From: a virus
Reading direction: 5' to 3' (one strand)
DNA: 64,000 nucleotides
IMG/VR virus record: IMGVR_UViG_3300036760_001167
Coordinates: 32,001-96,000 of that record
Part shown: piece after piece, positions 634 to 63,873 of the stretch
Layout: every line of letters starts with the position of its first letter
Position numbering within the stretch: position 1 is the first letter of the stretch
Translations under genes and position numbers: made by a program
The notes under the pieces: generated by a model
The model's input: the letters and a program-made list of their open reading frames with translations, nothing else
Databases searched by the model: none
What the model was told of the DNA's origin: nothing

Positions 634-648
634 GCGGCCTTCCCTGCG

Positions 649-721
649 TCCCCGGAGAAGGACTCGAACCCTCGGCCGTCGCGTTAGGACCGCGCCGCTC
701 TTTCCTCTGAGCTACCCGGGG
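649..721 (-). tRNA. tRNA-Arg(CCT)
   Basis: Cloverleaf: CCCCGGG/TCCGGGG acceptor, GCTC..GAGC D arm, loop GTCCTAA, GAGGG-TTCGAGT-CCTTC T arm. Confidence 0.85.
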
Positions 722-727
722 CTGAGC

Positions 728-753
728 GGGAGGGCCGCCCTCGCGGCCCTCCC
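728..753 (-). terminator. GC-rich hairpin (terminator or processing site)
   Basis: GGGAGGGCCGC-CCTC-GCGGCCCTCCC inverted repeat between the surface-protein gene and the tRNA. Confidence 0.5.
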
Positions 754-782
754 GTCCTGCTTGGCTCCGATACCTTACCTCG

Positions 783-1802
783 TTACCTGCCTCCCCGCGT
801 CACCGACGCGATGGACCGCTTCCGCGTGAGCGCGAGCGCGCCCAGGCCGAGCAGCGTCAGGAGCCCCATGCCGATCGCGGGCCGCGTGACGTTCGAGCCC
901 GTCATCGCGAGGTCGCCGCCGGACGGCGGGCCACCCGCGAAGGTCGGGATCGGAGGCGCCGGCGTCCAGGTGGACTGCCAGCAGGGGAACTGGTCCGCCG
1001 GGCACGCCTTGGGCGGCGGCGTCGGCGAAGGGGTCTGGCAGCCGGCGTTGTCCACCGTGAGCGTCCGCACGTCGCCGCCGTTGAACGCGGCCGTGACCAC
1101 GGTCCCGTTCGCGAGCTGGCCGAGGTCCACGTCCGTCGGGTTGACGGAGATGGTCACGTCGGTGAAGACGCCGTCGACGCTGTAGTACGCGTTCCCGGTG
1201 CCCTCGAACCTGATGAACGTGTCCGTGCAGCTCGAGAAGATGAACGCCTCGGGCGTCGCGGGCGGTGGCGGCGGGGTCTGCGTGCCGATCGGCACGCACT
1301 GCCCGTCGTTGTTGAGCTCGTACCCCTCCGGGACCGTCGCCTGGTCGCCCTCGATGTTCGGGCAGACGTCGACGGGCGGGGGCGTGGTCGTCAGCGGCAC
1401 GCAGTCGCCGTTGTCGTCGATCACGTCGCCCTCCGGGACCGTCGCCTGGTCGCCCTCGATGTTCGGGCAGACGTCGGTCGGCGTGTCGCCGGACGGGCAG
1501 TCGCTCGCGGACGGGCTCTCCTGGCCGACGTCGAGGGCCAGCACGAAGCTCCGGCCCTGCGCGTCGTTGAAGTACAAGCCCACCACGACCGGGTCCTCGC
1601 CGATCGCGTTGAAGTCCACGTCGATCGGGTTCTGGCCGGTCTGCAGCGTCTCGTTCACGCCGGGCGTCCCGACGTACTTGCAGACGAACGCCTTGTGCGG
1701 CGCGGCCGTCGCGTTCGCGGCCATGATGTTCGCCCCGATCGGCAGGAGCACCACGGCCGTCACGGCAAGCGCCGCGAGCAGCTTGTTCCTTGTCCTCTTC
1801 AT
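783..1802 (-). CDS. Secreted, sortase-anchored (LAxTG) surface protein with acidic Cys repeats
   Basis: Signal peptide MKRTRNKLLAALAVTAVVLL; 2x DVCPNIEGDQATVPEG; Pro-rich linkers; C-terminal LAMTG, hydrophobic helix and RKR tail; RBS GAGGAG. Confidence 0.8.
   Translation of the reverse strand: MKRTRNKLLAALAVTAVVLLPIGANIMAANATAAPHKAFVCKYVGTPGVNETLQTGQNPIDVDFNAIGEDPVVVGLYFNDAQGRSFVLALDVGQESPSASDCPSGDTPTDVCPNIEGDQATVPEGDVIDDNGDCVPLTTTPPPVDVCPNIEGDQATVPEGYELNNDGQCVPIGTQTPPPPPATPEAFIFSSCTDTFIRFEGTGNAYYSVDGVFTDVTISVNPTDVDLGQLANGTVVTAAFNGGDVRTLTVDNAGCQTPSPTPPPKACPADQFPCWQSTWTPAPPIPTFAGGPPSGGDLAMTGSNVTRPAIGMGLLTLLGLGALALTRKRSIASVTRGGR
1324..1476. repeat. 48-bp exact direct repeat (1324-1371 and 1429-1476)
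   Basis: Identical ccctccgggaccgtcgcctggtcgccctcgatgttcgggcagacgtcg, encoding DVCPNIEGDQATVPEG. Confidence 0.95.
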
Positions 1803-1848
1803 CTCCGTCTCCTCTCGCGCAGGCTTGTGACCTGCCTCCATCCGCATC

Positions 1849-2088
1849 TTACCTGGATGCGGCCGCCTTGTACACCCCCACCCGCTCTGCCACTGCGGCG
1901 AAGCCGGCGTGGATCGCGCTGGCCGCGCAGGCCCACGCCTCGGCGGCGCAGCTCTCGCCGTGGAACTCGAAGCGGGCCTCGTGCGGGCGGATGCCCGCGG
2001 CGAGGTCGCCCTTGTCCCGCACCGTCACGACGAAGTAGTCCACGCCTCCATCGTAGTGCCTCGTCGCCGCCTCCCTCGTCGCCCTCAT
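1849..2088 (-). CDS. Hypothetical protein
   Basis: ATGA overlap with the TadG-like stop; MRATREAATRHYDGGVDYF... Confidence 0.6.
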   Translation of the reverse strand: MRATREAATRHYDGGVDYFVVTVRDKGDLAAGIRPHEARFEFHGESCAAEAWACAASAIHAGFAAVAERVGVYKAAASR

Positions 2089-2780
2089 GCCGACAGCCAG
2101 ACGTGCGGGCTCGCGTCGTGCGGGCAGTCGACGGCCGGGTCGATGAAGTAGCTCTGGTTTGACTGCGGCACCGACGCGATCACGAAGGAGTCCTGCGCGT
2201 CGTTGAAACCGGTCGTCCCGTTCCACGGGAGGCCGCTGTGCCAGTCCTTGAGGTCGGAGCTGTTCACGCTCCTCCAGCCGCTCGCTGACACGCTGAGCCT
2301 CTCGGGGTTCCCGACGTACTTGCAGACGTAGACCTGCTTGTCGGCCCCGTTCACGGGGTGGAGCACCGCGGGCGTCAGCCCGTTCAGCCGCCACGAGCCG
2401 GTCGCCGCCACGGTGACGGTCCTCGAGTTGGAGAGGCCCAGGACCGGCGCGAAGTACAGCGGCTGCGTCGACGTGAACGTGACCGAGACGCTGCCGGTCA
2501 CGTTGTTGCACTGGCTGAGGTTCATCGTCCAGGTGAAGCCCGCGGCATGCGGCGCGTTCACCGGGAAGATCGCGAGCGCGTCCGCCTGCGCGGCCGGCGC
2601 GCCCAGCCCCTTCGAGCACTTGAGCGCGGCCGCCAGCGCGGCCGCGTCGGCGCCGTTGACCATCTCTCGCCGCCTGTACAGCATCCCGCCGACGTCGACC
2701 GTCAGCGCGACCGCGCCCATCATCACGACCAGCACGAGCGCCGTGACGACCGCGACGACGCCCTCCTCGCGGCGCCTCAT
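2085..2780 (-). CDS. TadG-like pseudopilin (Tad N-terminal domain)
   Basis: RRREEG|VVAVVTALVLVVMMGAVALTVDVG...MVNGADAAALAAA matches the TadG-type N-terminal signature. Confidence 0.85.
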   Translation of the reverse strand: MRRREEGVVAVVTALVLVVMMGAVALTVDVGGMLYRRREMVNGADAAALAAALKCSKGLGAPAAQADALAIFPVNAPHAAGFTWTMNLSQCNNVTGSVSVTFTSTQPLYFAPVLGLSNSRTVTVAATGSWRLNGLTPAVLHPVNGADKQVYVCKYVGNPERLSVSASGWRSVNSSDLKDWHSGLPWNGTTGFNDAQDSFVIASVPQSNQSYFIDPAVDCPHDASPHVWLSA

Positions 2781-3169
2781 CGCTCGCACCTGAAGGTCGC
2801 CGCGATGTTCGTCGCGATGTGGAAGTCCGGGAGCAGCGGGATCGAGATCACGATGCCCTGGCCCCCGTTCAGCAGGCCCGTGTTGAAGCTCGCGGTCGAG
2901 TCGACGCCGGCGCCGTCGCAGGAGGTCACGAGCACCTGGGCGGCGGGCACGAGCCCTGCCGAGGTGTCCGAGACCTTCTGCTGGACGGTCGCGACGCAGG
3001 TTCCGCCGGGACAAACCGCGCCGGTGCGGGCGCCCTCGCGCACCGCGCCGCGGATGGTCTGGAGCTGCATGAAGCCCAGCCCGAACCCGATGACGCCGAA
3101 GACCAGCATGAACAGCAGCGGCGCGACGAGCGCGAACTCGACCGCCGCCGCCCCGCGCTCGCGCCTCAC
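2777..3169 (-). CDS. tadE: TadE family pseudopilin
   Basis: RERG|AAAVEFALVAPLLFMLVFGVIGFG...AVREGARTGAV: prepilin cleavage motif with Glu+5 and the TadE motif. Confidence 0.9.
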   Translation of the reverse strand: MRRERGAAAVEFALVAPLLFMLVFGVIGFGLGFMQLQTIRGAVREGARTGAVCPGGTCVATVQQKVSDTSAGLVPAAQVLVTSCDGAGVDSTASFNTGLLNGGQGIVISIPLLPDFHIATNIAATFRCER

Positions 3170-3261
3170 TTCGAGACCGCCCGCGCGAAGAGCGAGAACG
3201 CTCCCCACACCATCACGTTCGCGGCCACTCCCACGAGCAGCCACGTCTTGAAGTTCTTCAT
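3166..3261 (-). CDS. 31-aa single-helix membrane protein
   Basis: MKNFKTWLLVGVAANVMVWGAFSLFARAVSK; overlaps both the rtcB stop and the tadE start. Confidence 0.55.
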   Translation of the reverse strand: MKNFKTWLLVGVAANVMVWGAFSLFARAVSK

Positions 3262-4502
3262 CGCGTGCCTCCTGTCTTCCGGCGCCTGTCGTCGACGCCC
3301 TTGTAGTTCGCGATCGCGCGGAGCCTGTAGTCGACCCGCACGAGGTCGGCCTGGTCGGCCATTACCGTCTCGACGTCCTTGTACGCCTGCGGGCTCTCGT
3401 CCAGCAGGCTCGCCGCGTCGCCGTCCTGCCAGGCGACGCCCTCCATCCGCGCCGCGAAGTCCTCGAGCGCGACCTCCTTCCTGGCCCTGCCGCGCGACAT
3501 CACGCGGCCCGCGCCGTGCGAACAGCTCTCGTAGGACTCGGGGTTCCCGAGCCCGCTCACGACGAAGCTCGCCTGGCCCATGGCGCCGGGGATCAGGCCG
3601 CGGCTCGAGACGTGCGCGGCGATCGCGCCCTTGCGCGTGACGTACGCGTGCCGCCCGAGCTCCGCGACGCCCTCGAAGCTCACGTAGTTGTGGTGGCAGT
3701 TCACCTCGTCCTCGATCAGGAGGCGCTTCCCGGCGACCTCCTCGAGGGCGGCGTGGGCGCGGCGCAGGATCTGCCGACGGTTCTCGAGCGCGTACCGCTG
3801 CGCCCAGGAGACGTCCGCCACGTAGGCCGCGAACTCGCTGCCGCCGCGGTCGAGCCAGGCCAGGTCGAGCTCCGGCACCGTCTCGCCGGCCGCCGCGCGC
3901 TCCGCGCTGGGGTGCGGCTTGAGCGGCACGTCGGCGCCGTGGAGCAGCGCTGCGGCGTCGCCGTAGACCCGCGCCAGCTTGTTCCCCGCGCCGCGCGAGC
4001 CGGAGTGCAGCAGGATCCACACCTGCCCGAGCTCGTCGACGCTGAGCTCCACGAAGTGGTTCCCCGCGCCGAGCGTGCCGATCTGCCGGCCCGCGAGCGG
4101 GACGTCGTCGACCCTCGACGGCGCCGGGTCGCAGGCGATGAACTCCGCCGCCTCGTCGGACATCGCCCTGTCCCAGTGCCCCAGCCCCGCCGGGACGAGC
4201 CGCCCCACAGCCTCCACCCAGGCCGCGGCGTCGCCGTCGCCCAAGTCGCCCAAGTCCAGCGCCAGCCTGCGCGCGGCCATGCCGCAGCCGATGTCCACGC
4301 CGACCGCCATCGGGATGACCGCGTCCTCGGTCACGAGGACGCTGCCGATCGTGGCGCCGTGGCCGAGGTGCGCGTCCGGCATCAGCGCGACGGGCAGGCT
4401 CAGGATCGCGAGCTCCGCGGTCCGCTCCGCGGCCTCGCGGGCGTTGTCATCCAGGATGCTGGCCCAGCTCCGGACCCTGCCGTTCGCGAACGTCTCACGC
4501 AT
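3258..4502 (-). CDS. rtcB: RtcB RNA ligase
   Basis: MPDAHLG, VGVDIGCGM, GTLGAGNHFVE, HSGSRG, HHNY, TRKGA, SCSHGAGR, DESPQAYKD motifs. Confidence 0.97.
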   Translation of the reverse strand: MRETFANGRVRSWASILDDNAREAAERTAELAILSLPVALMPDAHLGHGATIGSVLVTEDAVIPMAVGVDIGCGMAARRLALDLGDLGDGDAAAWVEAVGRLVPAGLGHWDRAMSDEAAEFIACDPAPSRVDDVPLAGRQIGTLGAGNHFVELSVDELGQVWILLHSGSRGAGNKLARVYGDAAALLHGADVPLKPHPSAERAAAGETVPELDLAWLDRGGSEFAAYVADVSWAQRYALENRRQILRRAHAALEEVAGKRLLIEDEVNCHHNYVSFEGVAELGRHAYVTRKGAIAAHVSSRGLIPGAMGQASFVVSGLGNPESYESCSHGAGRVMSRGRARKEVALEDFAARMEGVAWQDGDAASLLDESPQAYKDVETVMADQADLVRVDYRLRAIANYKGVDDRRRKTGGTR

Positions 4503-7554: not shown

Positions 7555-7654
7555 TCTATTATCGGCAGCGCGCCCGCGGTGAGTACCGGCCGAAAGGGCC
7601 AGAACCGCCCTCCCCGGCAGCCTAGGTCGAAGGTCTGGTATGCGCCATACTAGG
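7555..7654 (-). promoter_or_regulatory. Conserved promoter/operator element, copy 1
   Basis: Minus strand: CTAGTATGGCGCATACCAGACCTTCGACCTAGG...CGGTAC...CCGATAAT. Confidence 0.8.
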
Positions 7655-8502
7655 CCGGGTTCCCGCTGCCCAGGGCCTCGGCGCGGTGCTTCCGGCACAG
7701 GGGCACCTTGCCCGCCCGCTCCGGCTCGATGTCGAGGCCCGCCCGCTCCGCCGCCTCGGGCTCCGCGGTGCCCGCGTAGTAGTGGCCGCAGCCCTTGACG
7801 CAGCAGACCCGGATCGTCCGGCCCTTGCCGCCTCCGACGCGGCTGCCGCTGCCCGCCTGCGCCGCCGATCGCAGCGCCTCCGCCGGGAACGTCGTCGCCG
7901 CGCCCGTCGTCTTGCCGCTGCGCGCCTCGCTCTCGACGCGGTGGACGCGGGCGCCCATGCCGCAGTAGTCGCGCGGCCACGCGTACAGGTTGCTCACGCC
8001 GATCCCCTCGCCCTTCAGGTGCGGCCTGCCGTCCGCCTCCCAGTGGTGGAACTCCCAGCGCTCGCCGGGGTCGGACCAGGGCAGGTCGACGATCAGGACG
8101 TCGCCGGGCCGGAAGTCCGGGCGCTCGAACCCGAGCAGCTCCGGCGCGTGCTCCGCCGCGCAGTGGAGCGGGCAGAAGCCGCACGGGTCGAGCCGCTCCT
8201 CGCGGCAGTCGGCGTGGAAGCAGCGCGGGTAGTGCTCGCGGCAGAAGCCGCGCGGGCTGATCGCCCCGGCCTTGCACTCCTCCTCGACGCACCGCGGCTT
8301 GGCCGTCATGCCTGGCCGCCGATCGCCCGGACCTGGTCGGCGCGGAGCTCGCGCCACTCGCCGCGCTCGTCGATGTGGCGCCAGAACGCGATCGACCGCG
8401 CGGCGGCGGCGCGCGACGGCGCGGCGACGACGTAGTCGGCCTGCACGATCCAGGGCTTCGCCTCGAGCCGCTCCGGCGCCGTGTGGAGCCAGTGCCAGGT
8501 CC

Positions 8503-9018
8503 TCACAGCTCGGCCCTCGCGAAGCGCCAGCCGAAGGAGGCGGCGAGGCTTCCCTCCATCTCGTCGCGGTAGGCGTGGAGGGGCGTGCCCTCCAGCGCGG
8601 TCCTCTTCGCGAGGATCGCGTCCACGGTCCGGCCCAGGATGACCGCGAGCTCGGCGTCGGTGACGCCGCGGTCGGGGTCGCAGGCCAGCAGCGCGTCCTC
8701 GTGCGACCACTCCTCGCCCCGGCGGTCGGCGGTGTCGATGGACGTGGCGTTGAGCCGCTTCTGGGCGATCGCCTTCTTGGCCCTCTGCTCCTCGGGCGTC
8801 CGCATCCGGCCGTCCTTGCGGGGCACCGTCGCGAGCAGGTCGAGCACGTCGTCGACGCAGACCCAGTGCCCGCCCGCGTTGACCTCGGCGCGCACGACCC
8901 CAGCGCTCACCCACTTGTGGACGGTGCTCTCGCACACGGGCAGCGCGCGGGCCGCGCCCGCGGGGTGGAGCCAGCGCGTGCCGTCGGCCTTCCTGCGCTT
9001 GACGTCGGCGGCCCTCAC
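8503..9018 (-). CDS. Helix-turn-helix (Xis/MerR-like) DNA-binding protein
   Basis: WLHPAGAARALPVCESTVHKWVSAGVVRA; a second HTH-like segment ELAVILGRTVDAI. Confidence 0.6.
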   Translation of the reverse strand: MRAADVKRRKADGTRWLHPAGAARALPVCESTVHKWVSAGVVRAEVNAGGHWVCVDDVLDLLATVPRKDGRMRTPEEQRAKKAIAQKRLNATSIDTADRRGEEWSHEDALLACDPDRGVTDAELAVILGRTVDAILAKRTALEGTPLHAYRDEMEGSLAASFGWRFARAEL

Positions 9019-11432: not shown

Positions 11433-11532
11433 ATCATTATCGGCAGCCGTGCCCCCGCAGCGTACCGGCCGAAGGGCCCGAGATCGCCTGGGCGTCGGCC
11501 TAGGCCGGAGGTCTAGTGTGGCGCGTACTAGA
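11433..11532 (-). promoter_or_regulatory. Conserved promoter/operator element, copy 3 (overlaps the terL stop)
   Basis: attatcggcagc ... cctagg-ccggaggtctagtgtggcgcgtactag. Confidence 0.8.
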
Positions 11533-13306
11533 TCCTGATGCGCTGGCCCGGCTTCTTGGGCGCGGGCTTCTTCGCGCGGCGCCGCTCGTCGGCCTCGCGG
11601 CGGAGCCGGCGCGCGTAGGACTCCTGCGGCTCCGCGGGCTTCGGCTTCCGCTCGGGCCGCGGCGGCGCGGGCTGCTCCGCGGGCTCCGGCTGCGCGTCCT
11701 CGCCGGGCTTCGGGTCCGTCTCGCGCGCGTACGCGCTCCTCTTCTTGGGCTTCGCGCCCGCGGCGATCGCGTCGCCGCGCGCCTCCCACGACAGCGCGCC
11801 GGCCGCGGCGGCGTCGATCTTGTTCGGGGACATCGGCGCCTCCTTCGAGATCGTCCAGAGCTGCCGGCCCTCGTCGTCGTACGAGGCGATCGGCTTCCTC
11901 CGCGTGTTCTCGACGTGCCGCGCCATCACCTCGTCGCCGTCGTGCGTGACGTCGCCGGCCTTGATCGACGCGGCGTACTTGCGGACCATGATCGCGGCCT
12001 GCTTCGGCCGGGACATCAGCCACGCGACCACGACCTTGTCGCCGTACTTCCCCTGCCACCTGTCGAGCAGCGCCTCGATGTTCGCGTACTGCGAGCCGGG
12101 GTCGACGTAGACGCGCCAGACCGACCAGGTCTCCATCGCCTCGGAGAGCGTGCCGTCGACCTCGTCGAAGTCGTGCTCGTAGTCGTCGTTCGCGGTCTCC
12201 GGCTTGGTCCAGATCCCGAGCGGCCACTGCCAGCCCGAGTCGACCTCGGTGGCGACCATCGCGAGCGCGTCCTCGTAGCGGGCGCCGTCGACGCCGACCG
12301 TGACCAGCGAGCCGGGCTTCGGCTGCTCCCGCTCCCTCTTGAGCTTGCGCCAGCGCTCCCCGTCGAACGCGCGGTCCTCGCCGGGCACCACGCGGTTGAG
12401 GAAGTAGCGCTCCGCCTGCGCGAGCTCGCCGCGCTTGAGGAGGTCGTCGATCTCGGACGAGATCCGCTCGGTGTCGACCCACCAGCTCGAGCCGTACAGG
12501 TTCCTGAGGACGCGCATGCGCTCGCGCTTGTTCTTGATGGAGCCGCGGCCGCCCTTGCCCATCATCCTGAAGACGCCGACGCCGGACTCGTGGGTCGCCT
12601 GCGCGACGCTCTGCTCGCTCGGGTCCCACGCGTTGCCGGTCTCGAGGAAGCGGCCGCCCATGCCGGCCAGGTTGCGGCGCTGCGTGTCGGCGAGCTTGCG
12701 GCCGCCGTTGCGCTTGGTCCAGTCGTGCGCCTCGTCCTCGACCGCGAACGTGATCCGCTGCCCGAGCCGGCTCCGGGCGCTCGCGGTGACGGGCTCGATC
12801 TTGCCGCCGTTCGGGAGGTTGATCCTGGTCTCCCCGGTGTCCGGGATCTCCGCCTTGAGGTTGCCGAGCTCGATCATCGGCACCAGCGATCGCCAGACGT
12901 TGGCCGTCTGGTCCTCCGAGACCGCCGTGACCTGGATCCACGGCGTCGCCCACGGCCGGCCGACCGGCTCGCCGTCCGCGTCCCACCCGTCGAACAGCAC
13001 GGGGCCGAAGGACTCGACGATGATCATGGCCGCGGCGAAGGGCCCCTTGCCGAGCTTCTGCGGCTCGACGATCTGGCCGCCGCGGTTGTAGCGGAACGCG
13101 CCGCTCGGCTTGGTCAGGTCCTTGACCGCGTCCGGCTTCAGCTCGTAGAAGTTGAGGACGAACTCCTGCTGCCAGTCCGACAGCAGGAACGGCTCGCCCG
13201 CGAACTCGCCGTCGGGGATGACGCACAGGTCCTGGATCGCGTCGAGCACTGCCCACCCGAGCGTCGGCAGCTCGCCCTCCGTGCGCGGCCCGCGCCAGCC
13301 CGTCAC
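11528..13306 (-). CDS. terL: Terminase large subunit (actinophage type)
   Basis: PTLGW N-terminus, PQKLGKGP Walker A, AVSEDQT, EDEAH Walker B, TGNAWDP, GVDGA nuclease motif, KIDAAAA. Confidence 0.95.
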   Translation of the reverse strand: MTGWRGPRTEGELPTLGWAVLDAIQDLCVIPDGEFAGEPFLLSDWQQEFVLNFYELKPDAVKDLTKPSGAFRYNRGGQIVEPQKLGKGPFAAAMIIVESFGPVLFDGWDADGEPVGRPWATPWIQVTAVSEDQTANVWRSLVPMIELGNLKAEIPDTGETRINLPNGGKIEPVTASARSRLGQRITFAVEDEAHDWTKRNGGRKLADTQRRNLAGMGGRFLETGNAWDPSEQSVAQATHESGVGVFRMMGKGGRGSIKNKRERMRVLRNLYGSSWWVDTERISSEIDDLLKRGELAQAERYFLNRVVPGEDRAFDGERWRKLKREREQPKPGSLVTVGVDGARYEDALAMVATEVDSGWQWPLGIWTKPETANDDYEHDFDEVDGTLSEAMETWSVWRVYVDPGSQYANIEALLDRWQGKYGDKVVVAWLMSRPKQAAIMVRKYAASIKAGDVTHDGDEVMARHVENTRRKPIASYDDEGRQLWTISKEAPMSPNKIDAAAAGALSWEARGDAIAAGAKPKKRSAYARETDPKPGEDAQPEPAEQPAPPRPERKPKPAEPQESYARRLRREADERRRAKKPAPKKPGQRIRI

Positions 13307-63416: not shown

Positions 63417-63420
63417 CGCG

Positions 63421-63493
63421 TAGGCACCGAGGGACTCGAACCCTCGACCCGCTCCGTGTGAAAGAGCCGCTCTGGCCGCTGAGCTAGGCGCCT
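63421..63493 (-). tRNA. tRNA-Val(CAC)
   Basis: Cloverleaf; anticodon loop TTCACAC; GGTTCGAGTCC T arm. Confidence 0.9.
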
Positions 63494-63494
63494 G

Positions 63495-63570
63495 TAACGG
63501 TGGCCGGATTCGGACCGGCGATCTCGGGATTATGAGCCCCGCGGGGACGGCCAGACTCCCCTACACCGCA
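63495..63570 (-). tRNA. tRNA-Met(CAT), initiator-like
   Basis: Loop CTCATAA; G-rich anticodon stem CGGGG/TCCCG; 1:72 mismatch. Confidence 0.85.
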
Positions 63571-63571
63571 G

Positions 63572-63642
63572 TAGTCCCAGCGGGGGTCGAACCCGCGCCG
63601 ACGGCTTGAGGGGCCGGCGTCCTTCCACTAGACCATGGGACC
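63572..63642 (-). tRNA. tRNA-Glu(CTC)
   Basis: GGTCCCA acceptor, GTCTAGTGG D arm, loop CCCTCAA. Confidence 0.85.
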
Positions 63643-63652
63643 GCGCACTTCG

Positions 63653-63725
63653 TGGACCGCCACGGACTCGAACCGTGACCTCACCGATGAAGAGTCGGGT
63701 GTGCTGCCTCTAACACCTGCAGTCC
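63653..63725 (-). tRNA. tRNA-Lys(CTT), atypical
   Basis: Cloverleaf with loop CTCTTCA; A8 and C37 deviate from consensus. Confidence 0.7.
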
Positions 63726-63726
63726 G

Positions 63727-63800
63727 TAGGAACGGGCGGTCTCGAACCGCCGACCTCCGCCTTATCAGGGCGGCGCTCTAACCTGCTGAGCTACGTTCCA
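63727..63800 (-). tRNA. tRNA-Ile(GAT)
   Basis: Loop CTGATAA; canonical D and T arms. Confidence 0.9.
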
Positions 63801-63801
63801 G

Positions 63802-63873
63802 AGCCGGCTCCAGGACTCGAACCCGGACTGCCACCTTACGACGGGGGCGTGCTGCCATTGACACTAAGTCGGC
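63802..63873 (-). tRNA. tRNA-Thr(CGT)
   Basis: GCCGACT acceptor; loop GTCGTAA; GGTTCGAGTCC T arm. Confidence 0.8.

Follow-up and report, generated by a model that had tools for sequence, protein, structure and literature searches.

Phages alter the surfaces of their hosts with lipoproteins, glycosyltransferases, and a few wall-anchored proteins, and SasX of Staphylococcus aureus is a prophage-borne LPXTG protein. Huge gut phages encode both sortase B and its substrates (bioRxiv 10.64898/2026.10.24.761521). The archaeal provirus SNJ2 encodes the pilins PilA1 and PilA2, which hijack the host PilB-PilC (Xiang et al. 2025, PMC12426801). In bacterial Tad pili, minor pilins of the TadE, TadF, and TadG types form interchangeable “Tip” complexes (e.g., KilLMN of Myxococcus xanthus). 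Some such sets map elsewhere than the tad locus, and their large TadG-like member displays a C-terminal module that varies. The exchange of tips was described in Myxococcus, with a proposal that other bacteria share it (Herrou et al. 2025, PMC12075869). Here, we compare these systems with a locus of a phage, probably of uncultured soil actinobacteria, at positions 783-3261 of a window of 64,000 nucleotides (bases 32001-96000 of the 106,510-bp IMG/VR virus record IMGVR_UViG_3300036760_001167), where a TadE–TadG pair of minor pilins accompanies a putative wall-anchored protein. We read the locus as a host-dependent surface-display cassette, in which a phage-specified Tad tip and a phage-specified wall protein are carried by a probably temperate actinophage, and give this reading a probability of roughly 0.55.

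Like KilLMN, the locus encodes a small TadE-like pilin together with a large TadG-like one whose C-terminal module varies, and the set lies away from a main tad locus and would depend on peptidase and pilus machinery encoded elsewhere. Unlike KilLMN, it is phage-borne, has two members rather than three, comes from Actinomycetota, and has as its module a small domain that we call VCKYVG. As with SNJ2, a temperate virus (here, probably so) has pilins and no assembly machinery; in SNJ2, the host machinery builds the filament and the cell surface is altered. However, the SNJ2 proteins, encoded by a pleolipovirus, serve as major pilins in a type IV pilus of archaea, whereas those described here are predicted to be minor (tip) pilins, belong to the bacterial Tad/Flp system, and come from a tailed phage that also has a sortase substrate. 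The wall protein resembles the sortase substrates of huge gut phages and SasX in its signal peptide, its cell-wall sorting signal, and its proposed display on the host wall. Unlike the huge gut phages, this phage lacks a sortase of its own, and the protein differs from the known phage substrates in its actinobacterial LAxTG motif and in sharing a domain family with a pilus-tip pilin of the same operon. We found no description in the literature of Tad minor pilins in a bacteriophage. The nearest precedent for phage-encoded Tad pilins is the pilin-encoding provirus SNJ2, along with the phage-encoded sortase substrates.

The pilin pair and its gene block

The TadE protein matches PF07811 at E 2.5e-15 (56.7 bits, vs. 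a cut-off of 22.9; 58.6 bits in the genome scan). It starts MRRERG|AAAVEFALVAPLLFMLVFGVIGF, where G|AAAVEF is a prepilin-type G/xxxxEF site (of the Tad prepilin peptidase type) followed by a hydrophobic helix, and cleavage is predicted. The G, E, and F of the site are invariant in alignment A5. The TadG-like protein matches PF13400 at E 1.1e-9 (38.9 bits, vs. a cut-off of 22.3) and has the conserved DxGxxxxRRxxxxNxADAAALA motif; alignment A6 has 33 invariant columns, including RRREMVNGAD. Residues 1-135 are predicted to make up a helix plus sheet that may be pilin-like. The AlphaFold2 model has a helix at residues 2-56 and three long strands, with a predicted local distance difference test (pLDDT) score of 75-92 for residues 1-130. 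The C-terminal module (residues 146-227; window 2100-2345) is a VCKYVG domain, and the protein ends in PHVWLSA. In relatives, other C-terminal modules are found on the same TadG N-terminus (alignment A1; metagenome contig L112).

The features of the block and its borders are as follows, in window coordinates (GC3 is the G+C fraction at third codon positions):

3258..4502, minus strand: RtcB RNA ligase (PF01139, E 7e-91; phrog_1075), the upstream neighbor of the cassette
3166..3261, minus strand: orf31, a 31-aa single-helix membrane peptide, MKNFKTWLLVGVAANVMVWGAFSLFARAVSK (GC3 0.91)
2777..3169, minus strand: TadE minor pilin, 130 aa (PF07811)
2085..2780, minus strand: TadG-like large minor pilin, 231 aa (PF13400)
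1849..2088, minus strand: orf79, 79 aa, without a signal peptide (GC3 0.93)
783..1802, minus strand: sortase-substrate surface (wall) protein, 339 aa (LAMTG sorting signal)
727..754, minus strand: GC-rich 12-bp hairpin (predicted fold -40.6 kcal/mol, z -2.84)
648..721, minus strand: tRNA-Arg (CCT), the downstream border of the block (ARAGORN)

A sequence-only reading of the window had called the TadE, TadG-like, and LAMTG genes, and all three are present on the minus strand where it placed them. It overlooked orf31 and orf79, and the end that it gave for the block (3261) is the start of orf31. The coupling of TadE and TadG that it proposed can be read directly from an ATGA overlap of stop and start codons. 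Overlaps of the same sequence join RtcB to orf31 and TadG to orf79, and orf31 overlaps TadE through GTGA. Judged from these junctions, the genes from RtcB through orf79 are translationally coupled. A 46-nt gap carrying a GGAGA ribosome-binding site separates orf79 from the wall-protein gene, directly 3' of which lies the hairpin. The hairpin has no U-tract and was not called by the terminator scan (which called nothing in the block); it likely marks the transcript end.

It should be noted that orf31 occupies the slot in which flp occurs in canonical tad loci (flp lies upstream of tadE in L011 and L012). We considered orf31 as a Flp pilin and rejected this, given no G/xxxxEY motif and no match to PF04964. 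Neither orf31 nor orf79 has a Pfam match, and orf79 has no relative in any locus compared. GC3 is 0.91-0.98 across all cassette genes, vs. a phage mean of 0.954, and 0.76-0.83 in the homologous open reading frames (ORFs) of bacterial metagenome-assembled genomes (MAGs). The phage-level GC3, the intact ORFs, and the ATGA/GTGA coupling together argue that the cassette is resident in the phage rather than freshly captured.

The closest relatives of the pair are TadE–TadG pairs, in the same overlapping arrangement, in MAGs of uncultured Actinomycetes/Actinomycetota (loci L004-L010). Identity to these orphan pairs is 63%-68% for TadE (full length; L004, L006, and L008) and 55%-57% for the TadG N-terminus. 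Where a locus extends for at least 4 kb to each side, the close pairs have no Flp or TadA within 4-8 kb; likewise, the phage pair is not in a locus with tadA, tadB/C, flp, or tadV. More distant relatives are located in canonical flp-tadE-tadG-tadA loci. By its sequence, the phage pair belongs to a clade of orphan TadE–TadG pairs of uncultured Actinomycetes. It resembles the MAG pairs in having two overlapping genes with no Flp or TadA nearby, and one of them (L009) also has a VCKYVG domain on TadG. Unlike the phage pair, the MAG pairs are chromosomal, have lower GC3, mostly encode a TadG of 331-337 aa, and have no adjoining wall protein with the same domain.

Most orphan pairs have a different and longer TadG C-terminal module. 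In the 331-337-aa form (L005, L006, and L007:7965-8978; L008:7998-8993), this module is conserved, Cys-rich, and unannotated (NGNGDFGFLNL.QWNWPSD.GC...CDL.Y...C).

Within viruses, the pair appears to be rare. No match to TadE, TadG, or the wall protein was found by tblastn among 50,697 GenBank phages, and none of the three matched a PHROG family. Three sets of patterns for the TadG clade recovered only the phage's own record from IMG/VR, and the TadE scan of IMG/VR recovered one distant lone gene, although these scans are pattern-dependent and distant relatives may escape them. The lone gene (L085:7914-8426) encodes a TadE-like protein (RRG|AAAVEFALV...) amid unannotated genes on a 146-kb IMG/VR contig of 51% G+C.

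The sequence-only reading had noted that the window holds no Tad machinery, and this extends to the whole 106,510-bp phage genome, in which there is no match to T2SSE (Tad ATPase), T2SSF (TadB/C), Peptidase_A24, Flp, or sortase, and thus no tad operon elsewhere on the contig. By comparison, all five of the MAGs with the closest pair have canonical tad loci elsewhere and one sortase each, and four of the five have an A24 prepilin peptidase. Because the genomes with the closest homologues are equipped in this way, display of the domain by two host routes, as that reading had proposed, would be the natural reading. One part of the proposal needs a qualification, in that the two domains are of the same family only.

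The wall protein and the shared VCKYVG domain

The sequence-only reading had described the product of 783-1802 as a LAMTG-anchored protein, and its layout agrees. A signal peptide (1704-1802), MKRTRNKLLAALAVTAVVLLPIGANIMAANATA as read from the sequence, aligns with those of 24 homologues. It is followed by the VCKYVG domain (1467-1703; Cys41-Cys102), two DVCPNIEGDQATVPEG repeats (1293-1475), a beta-rich domain (1035-1250), and then a Pro-rich stalk. At the C-terminus are LAMTG (897-911, residues 298-302), a hydrophobic segment, and a basic RKRS tail reaching to 786. LAxTG is the class E type of sorting motif; homologues have LAFTG, LPNTG, LPYTG, or LAYTG. The NCBIfam sorting-signal models give only 16 bits on the protein, under their cut-offs. 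The ten cysteines are consistent with five disulfides.

VCKYVG is an unnamed family that we define here as a disulfide-bounded domain of ~70 residues. One of its two invariant Cys lies in the strand that reads VCKYVG, the other ahead of a Pro-rich linker, and its sequence motifs are ExLQTGxNP and FxDAQGRS. In pairwise BLASTP, residues 34-115 of the wall protein and 146-227 of TadG are 33% identical over 86 columns (E 3e-5). A hidden Markov model (HMM) of 91 N-terminal domains from wall-protein homologues finds TadG homologues by their C-termini (E 1e-31 to 1e-14, Z = 1e6) and scores 23 bits on the phage TadG, which retains both Cys, KYVG, and FNDAQ. The wall-protein copy scores 119.6 bits against the A4 profile. 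By these comparisons, the C-terminus of TadG and the N-terminus of the wall protein are homologous, weakly when compared pairwise and clearly via intermediate sequences. Thus, the match that the earlier reading saw is significant in both alignment and HMM; its claim that the two proteins display the same domain holds for the family and not for the surface, the copies being 26%-33% identical.

A TadG with a C-terminal VCKYVG domain occurs in 5 of 118 related loci (L009, L094, L098, L115, and L129), with TadE directly upstream in all four whose contig extends far enough. The same combination, with a PHVWLS[NK] end, is also found in a set of metagenome proteins of ~220-270 aa. None of the 118 loci has a second VCKYVG protein near TadG. 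Because TadG with this module already exists in bacteria, and because the N-terminal version is common in other proteins, each phage copy, judged from this distribution, arrived with the protein family to which it belongs, rather than through a duplication made in the phage.

The A4 profile (42 sequences) matched 1,047 cluster representatives at E ≤1e-3 among 1.84 billion proteins, and the domain was found in only 1 of 401 sampled genomes of the nearest MAG's phylum. Its usual place is the N-terminus, after a signal peptide, in proteins with DUF11 repeats, CPNxxG repeats, Pro/Thr stalks, and LPxTG/LAxTG anchors. Secreted proteins with the domain are also encoded by 42 IMG/VR viral contigs (44%-69% G+C), in several of which the gene adjoins phage polymerase, helicase, terminase, portal, or capsid genes. 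We found no match to the domain in Pfam, NCBIfam, PHROG, or (by sequence) PDB, and a PDB sequence profile and an ESM Atlas search returned nothing useful. The AlphaFold2 model (pLDDT 77) folds into about four strands with a single short helix. Searches with this fold gave no convincing match (Foldseek against PDB, E >0.7; VIA-align, Z ≤4.4, to small Tudor/FKBP-like barrels). The domain is distal in both phage proteins, at the C-terminus of the pilin and the N-terminus of the wall protein, and this position suggests a ligand-binding role. It is frequent among the secreted proteins that phages encode, and we regard it as a promising candidate for a novel module, either an adhesin or a mask for receptors.

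Two further groups of VCKYVG proteins may be mentioned. A large subfamily of phage-encoded secreted proteins of 545-830 aa (IMG/VR loci L051-L075; e.g., L063:7599-9236) ends in ...YPPESSACANPDGPFPP...LPPT[RALV] with no hydrophobic anchor behind it; this end may act as an atypical signal for sorting or processing. Viral and metagenomic VCKYVG proteins at L042:4233-5267, L047:2222-3211, and L048:7923-8735 end in KHxCKP...W(V)...GC...PEPxxLTG, also without a membrane anchor.

What the cassette may do

The phage pair is best read, by analogy with the Myxococcus sets, as a putative exchangeable Tad tip set carried on a phage. A host prepilin peptidase would cut TadE, and TadE and the TadG-like protein would then form an alternative tip (priming) complex for the host Flp/Tad pilus, so that TadG's VCKYVG domain would come to lie at the far end of the pilus. 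Sec would export the LAMTG protein, and a host class E-type sortase would link it to peptidoglycan, with its N-terminal VCKYVG domain held outward on the Pro-rich stalk. An infected or lysogenic cell would thus show phage-specified, presumably ligand-binding domains at its two outermost positions, and the outcome would be a change either in cell adhesion or in access to the cell surface; altered adhesion or aggregation, or receptor occlusion, could follow. We infer all of these steps (tip assembly, wall anchoring, ligand, and benefit to the phage). If a tailed phage does supply the tip of a bacterial Tad pilus, exchangeable Tad tips would extend to mobile elements, and pilus specificity would be horizontally transferable and changeable by infection.

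Several observations weigh against a display cassette. No other IMG/VR or GenBank phage was found to have the pair, so conservation within phages is unusable as support. TadG lacks Glu at +5 and may therefore not be processed, and with no TadF in the set, the tip would be a dimer. A structure search of PDB with TadG gave Z ≤5.2 and no confident pilin match (PilV and GspK appear at Z 3.9 amid unrelated folds), and the model of its C-terminal domain is poor (pLDDT <50). The five MAGs, which are a candidate host lineage by homology, may not represent the phage's own host. They lack N-terminal VCKYVG wall proteins, and only one of the five has the domain, on TadG only. Finally, the terminase and portal genes flank the block within a long co-directional array, and its expression may thus fall late in the lytic cycle and be absent from lysogens. 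The promoter scan, which actinobacterial and phage promoters may evade, called no sigma-70-like promoter in the block. Of the marks of a moron, a phage unit with transcription of its own, the block shows the hairpin behind its last gene, and at its head it is coupled to RtcB.

Phages commonly use pili as receptors, and the Pseudomonas phage proteins Tip and Aqs1, both small, block type IV pili. The cassette could likewise remove receptors. The phage minor pilins would be poison subunits by which the host Tad pilus is stalled or capped, and the wall protein would mask a receptor on the wall; neither further phages nor released progeny could then adsorb to the occupied cell (superinfection exclusion). 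The same gene identities and host dependence would apply, and the pair, without Flp or a third, TadF-like pilin and with a non-Flp peptide in the flp slot, would fit an incomplete, blocking set. However, the nearest bacterial orphan pairs are likewise two-gene sets without Flp or TadF, so the missing parts are normal for the clade rather than a defect specific to the phage. In addition, the known phage blockers of pili act on the ATPase or platform rather than by mimicking pilins, and there is no sign that this phage or its competitors use Tad pili. We consider this explanation unlikely, yet a serious rival to display.

It is less probable still, and indeed rather improbable, that the block is passenger DNA, i.e., a host fragment with surface-protein genes and no selected function for the phage. 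This would be in keeping with the abundance of both protein families among cellular metagenome proteins and with the absence of the TadG clade from other phages in IMG/VR and GenBank. Against it, every ORF is intact and tightly coupled, GC3 is at the phage average, clearly higher than in the closest bacterial homologues, and identity to those homologues is no higher than 68%. Moreover, a pilin pair adjacent to the wall protein was found in 0 of the 118 bacterial or metagenome loci, which argues that the two were brought together in the phage.

That the products are associated with the head or tail, or act in the lysis system as membrane proteins, is very improbable: the block does lie between the large terminase (TerL) and portal genes and several of its proteins have one hydrophobic helix, but the Sec signal peptide, sortase sorting signal, and prepilin motif would all route the proteins out via the host membrane, none of the three falls in a PHROG family, and the neighbors (RtcB, tRNA, and AAA ATPase) are nonstructural.

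Returning to the display cassette, an extension of it can be offered as a long shot. The two VCKYVG domains might be a matched pair that bind each other or one ligand, such that phage-carrying cells would tether together or to uninfected hosts by way of the pilus tip and wall partner that the phage supplies, and the secreted VCKYVG proteins of >40 viral contigs might be a general phage tool for rewiring Gram-positive surfaces. If so, the host Tad pilus would become a device for phage spread or for aggregation of lysogens.

The phage genome and related contigs

The identification of the element as a phage, also made in the sequence-only reading, is secured by terminase, portal, capsid, and tail genes and by direct terminal repeats (CheckV completeness, 100%). 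The genome is ~72% G+C, with almost all genes on the minus strand. Within the window are genes for the large terminase, primase/helicase, ribonucleotide reductase, helicase, DNA polymerase, ligase, and RtcB. Just beyond it are those for the portal, a MuF/ADP-ribosyltransferase-like protein, protease, major capsid protein, adaptor, and major tail protein. The block sits between TerL (window 11528-13306) and the portal gene (genome 29167-30945), with RtcB, a tRNA, and an AAA ATPase as its neighbors. The nearest cultured relatives are actinophages, at 43% (TerL) and 40% (portal) identity; an RtcB-based scan for close relatives found none. Outside the window is one further feature:

Genome 99609-100121: tyrosine integrase (PF00589, E 3e-40)

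Because of this integrase, the 106-kb phage is probably temperate. The integrase coexists with the phage's own polymerase, ribonucleotide reductase, and ligase.

Three phage-like metagenome contigs of 56% G+C (L112, at 7567-8807, L113, and L114) have a TadE–TadG pair with a different C-terminal module and the same type of end (PHVWLSN). Their ribonucleotide reductase and exonuclease are 60% and 64% identical, respectively, to those of this phage, and no structural genes were seen in the part of the contigs examined. They may represent a second phage lineage with Tad tip genes. In L112 and L114, the TadG C-terminus (HIDFCH...DVIPPY) resembles, at the motif level only, the N-terminus of a nearby secreted protein (KVTICH...DIIPPF). 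A two-route design is not supported for these contigs (BLASTP E 0.27; no match with an HMM of 117 homologues). The secreted protein at L114:8063-8728, with the N-terminal motif KVTICHRTHSATNPYV...GDIIPPF, has 170 homologues of 114-364 aa without a Pfam domain. It may be a further unnamed surface domain, possibly distantly like VCKYVG.

Lastly, RtcB, which heads the cassette operon, occurs here in a phage with several tRNA genes. Apart from the tRNA-Arg (CCT) adjacent to the cassette, six more (Val, Met, Glu, Lys, Ile, and Thr) form an array at window 63420-63873.

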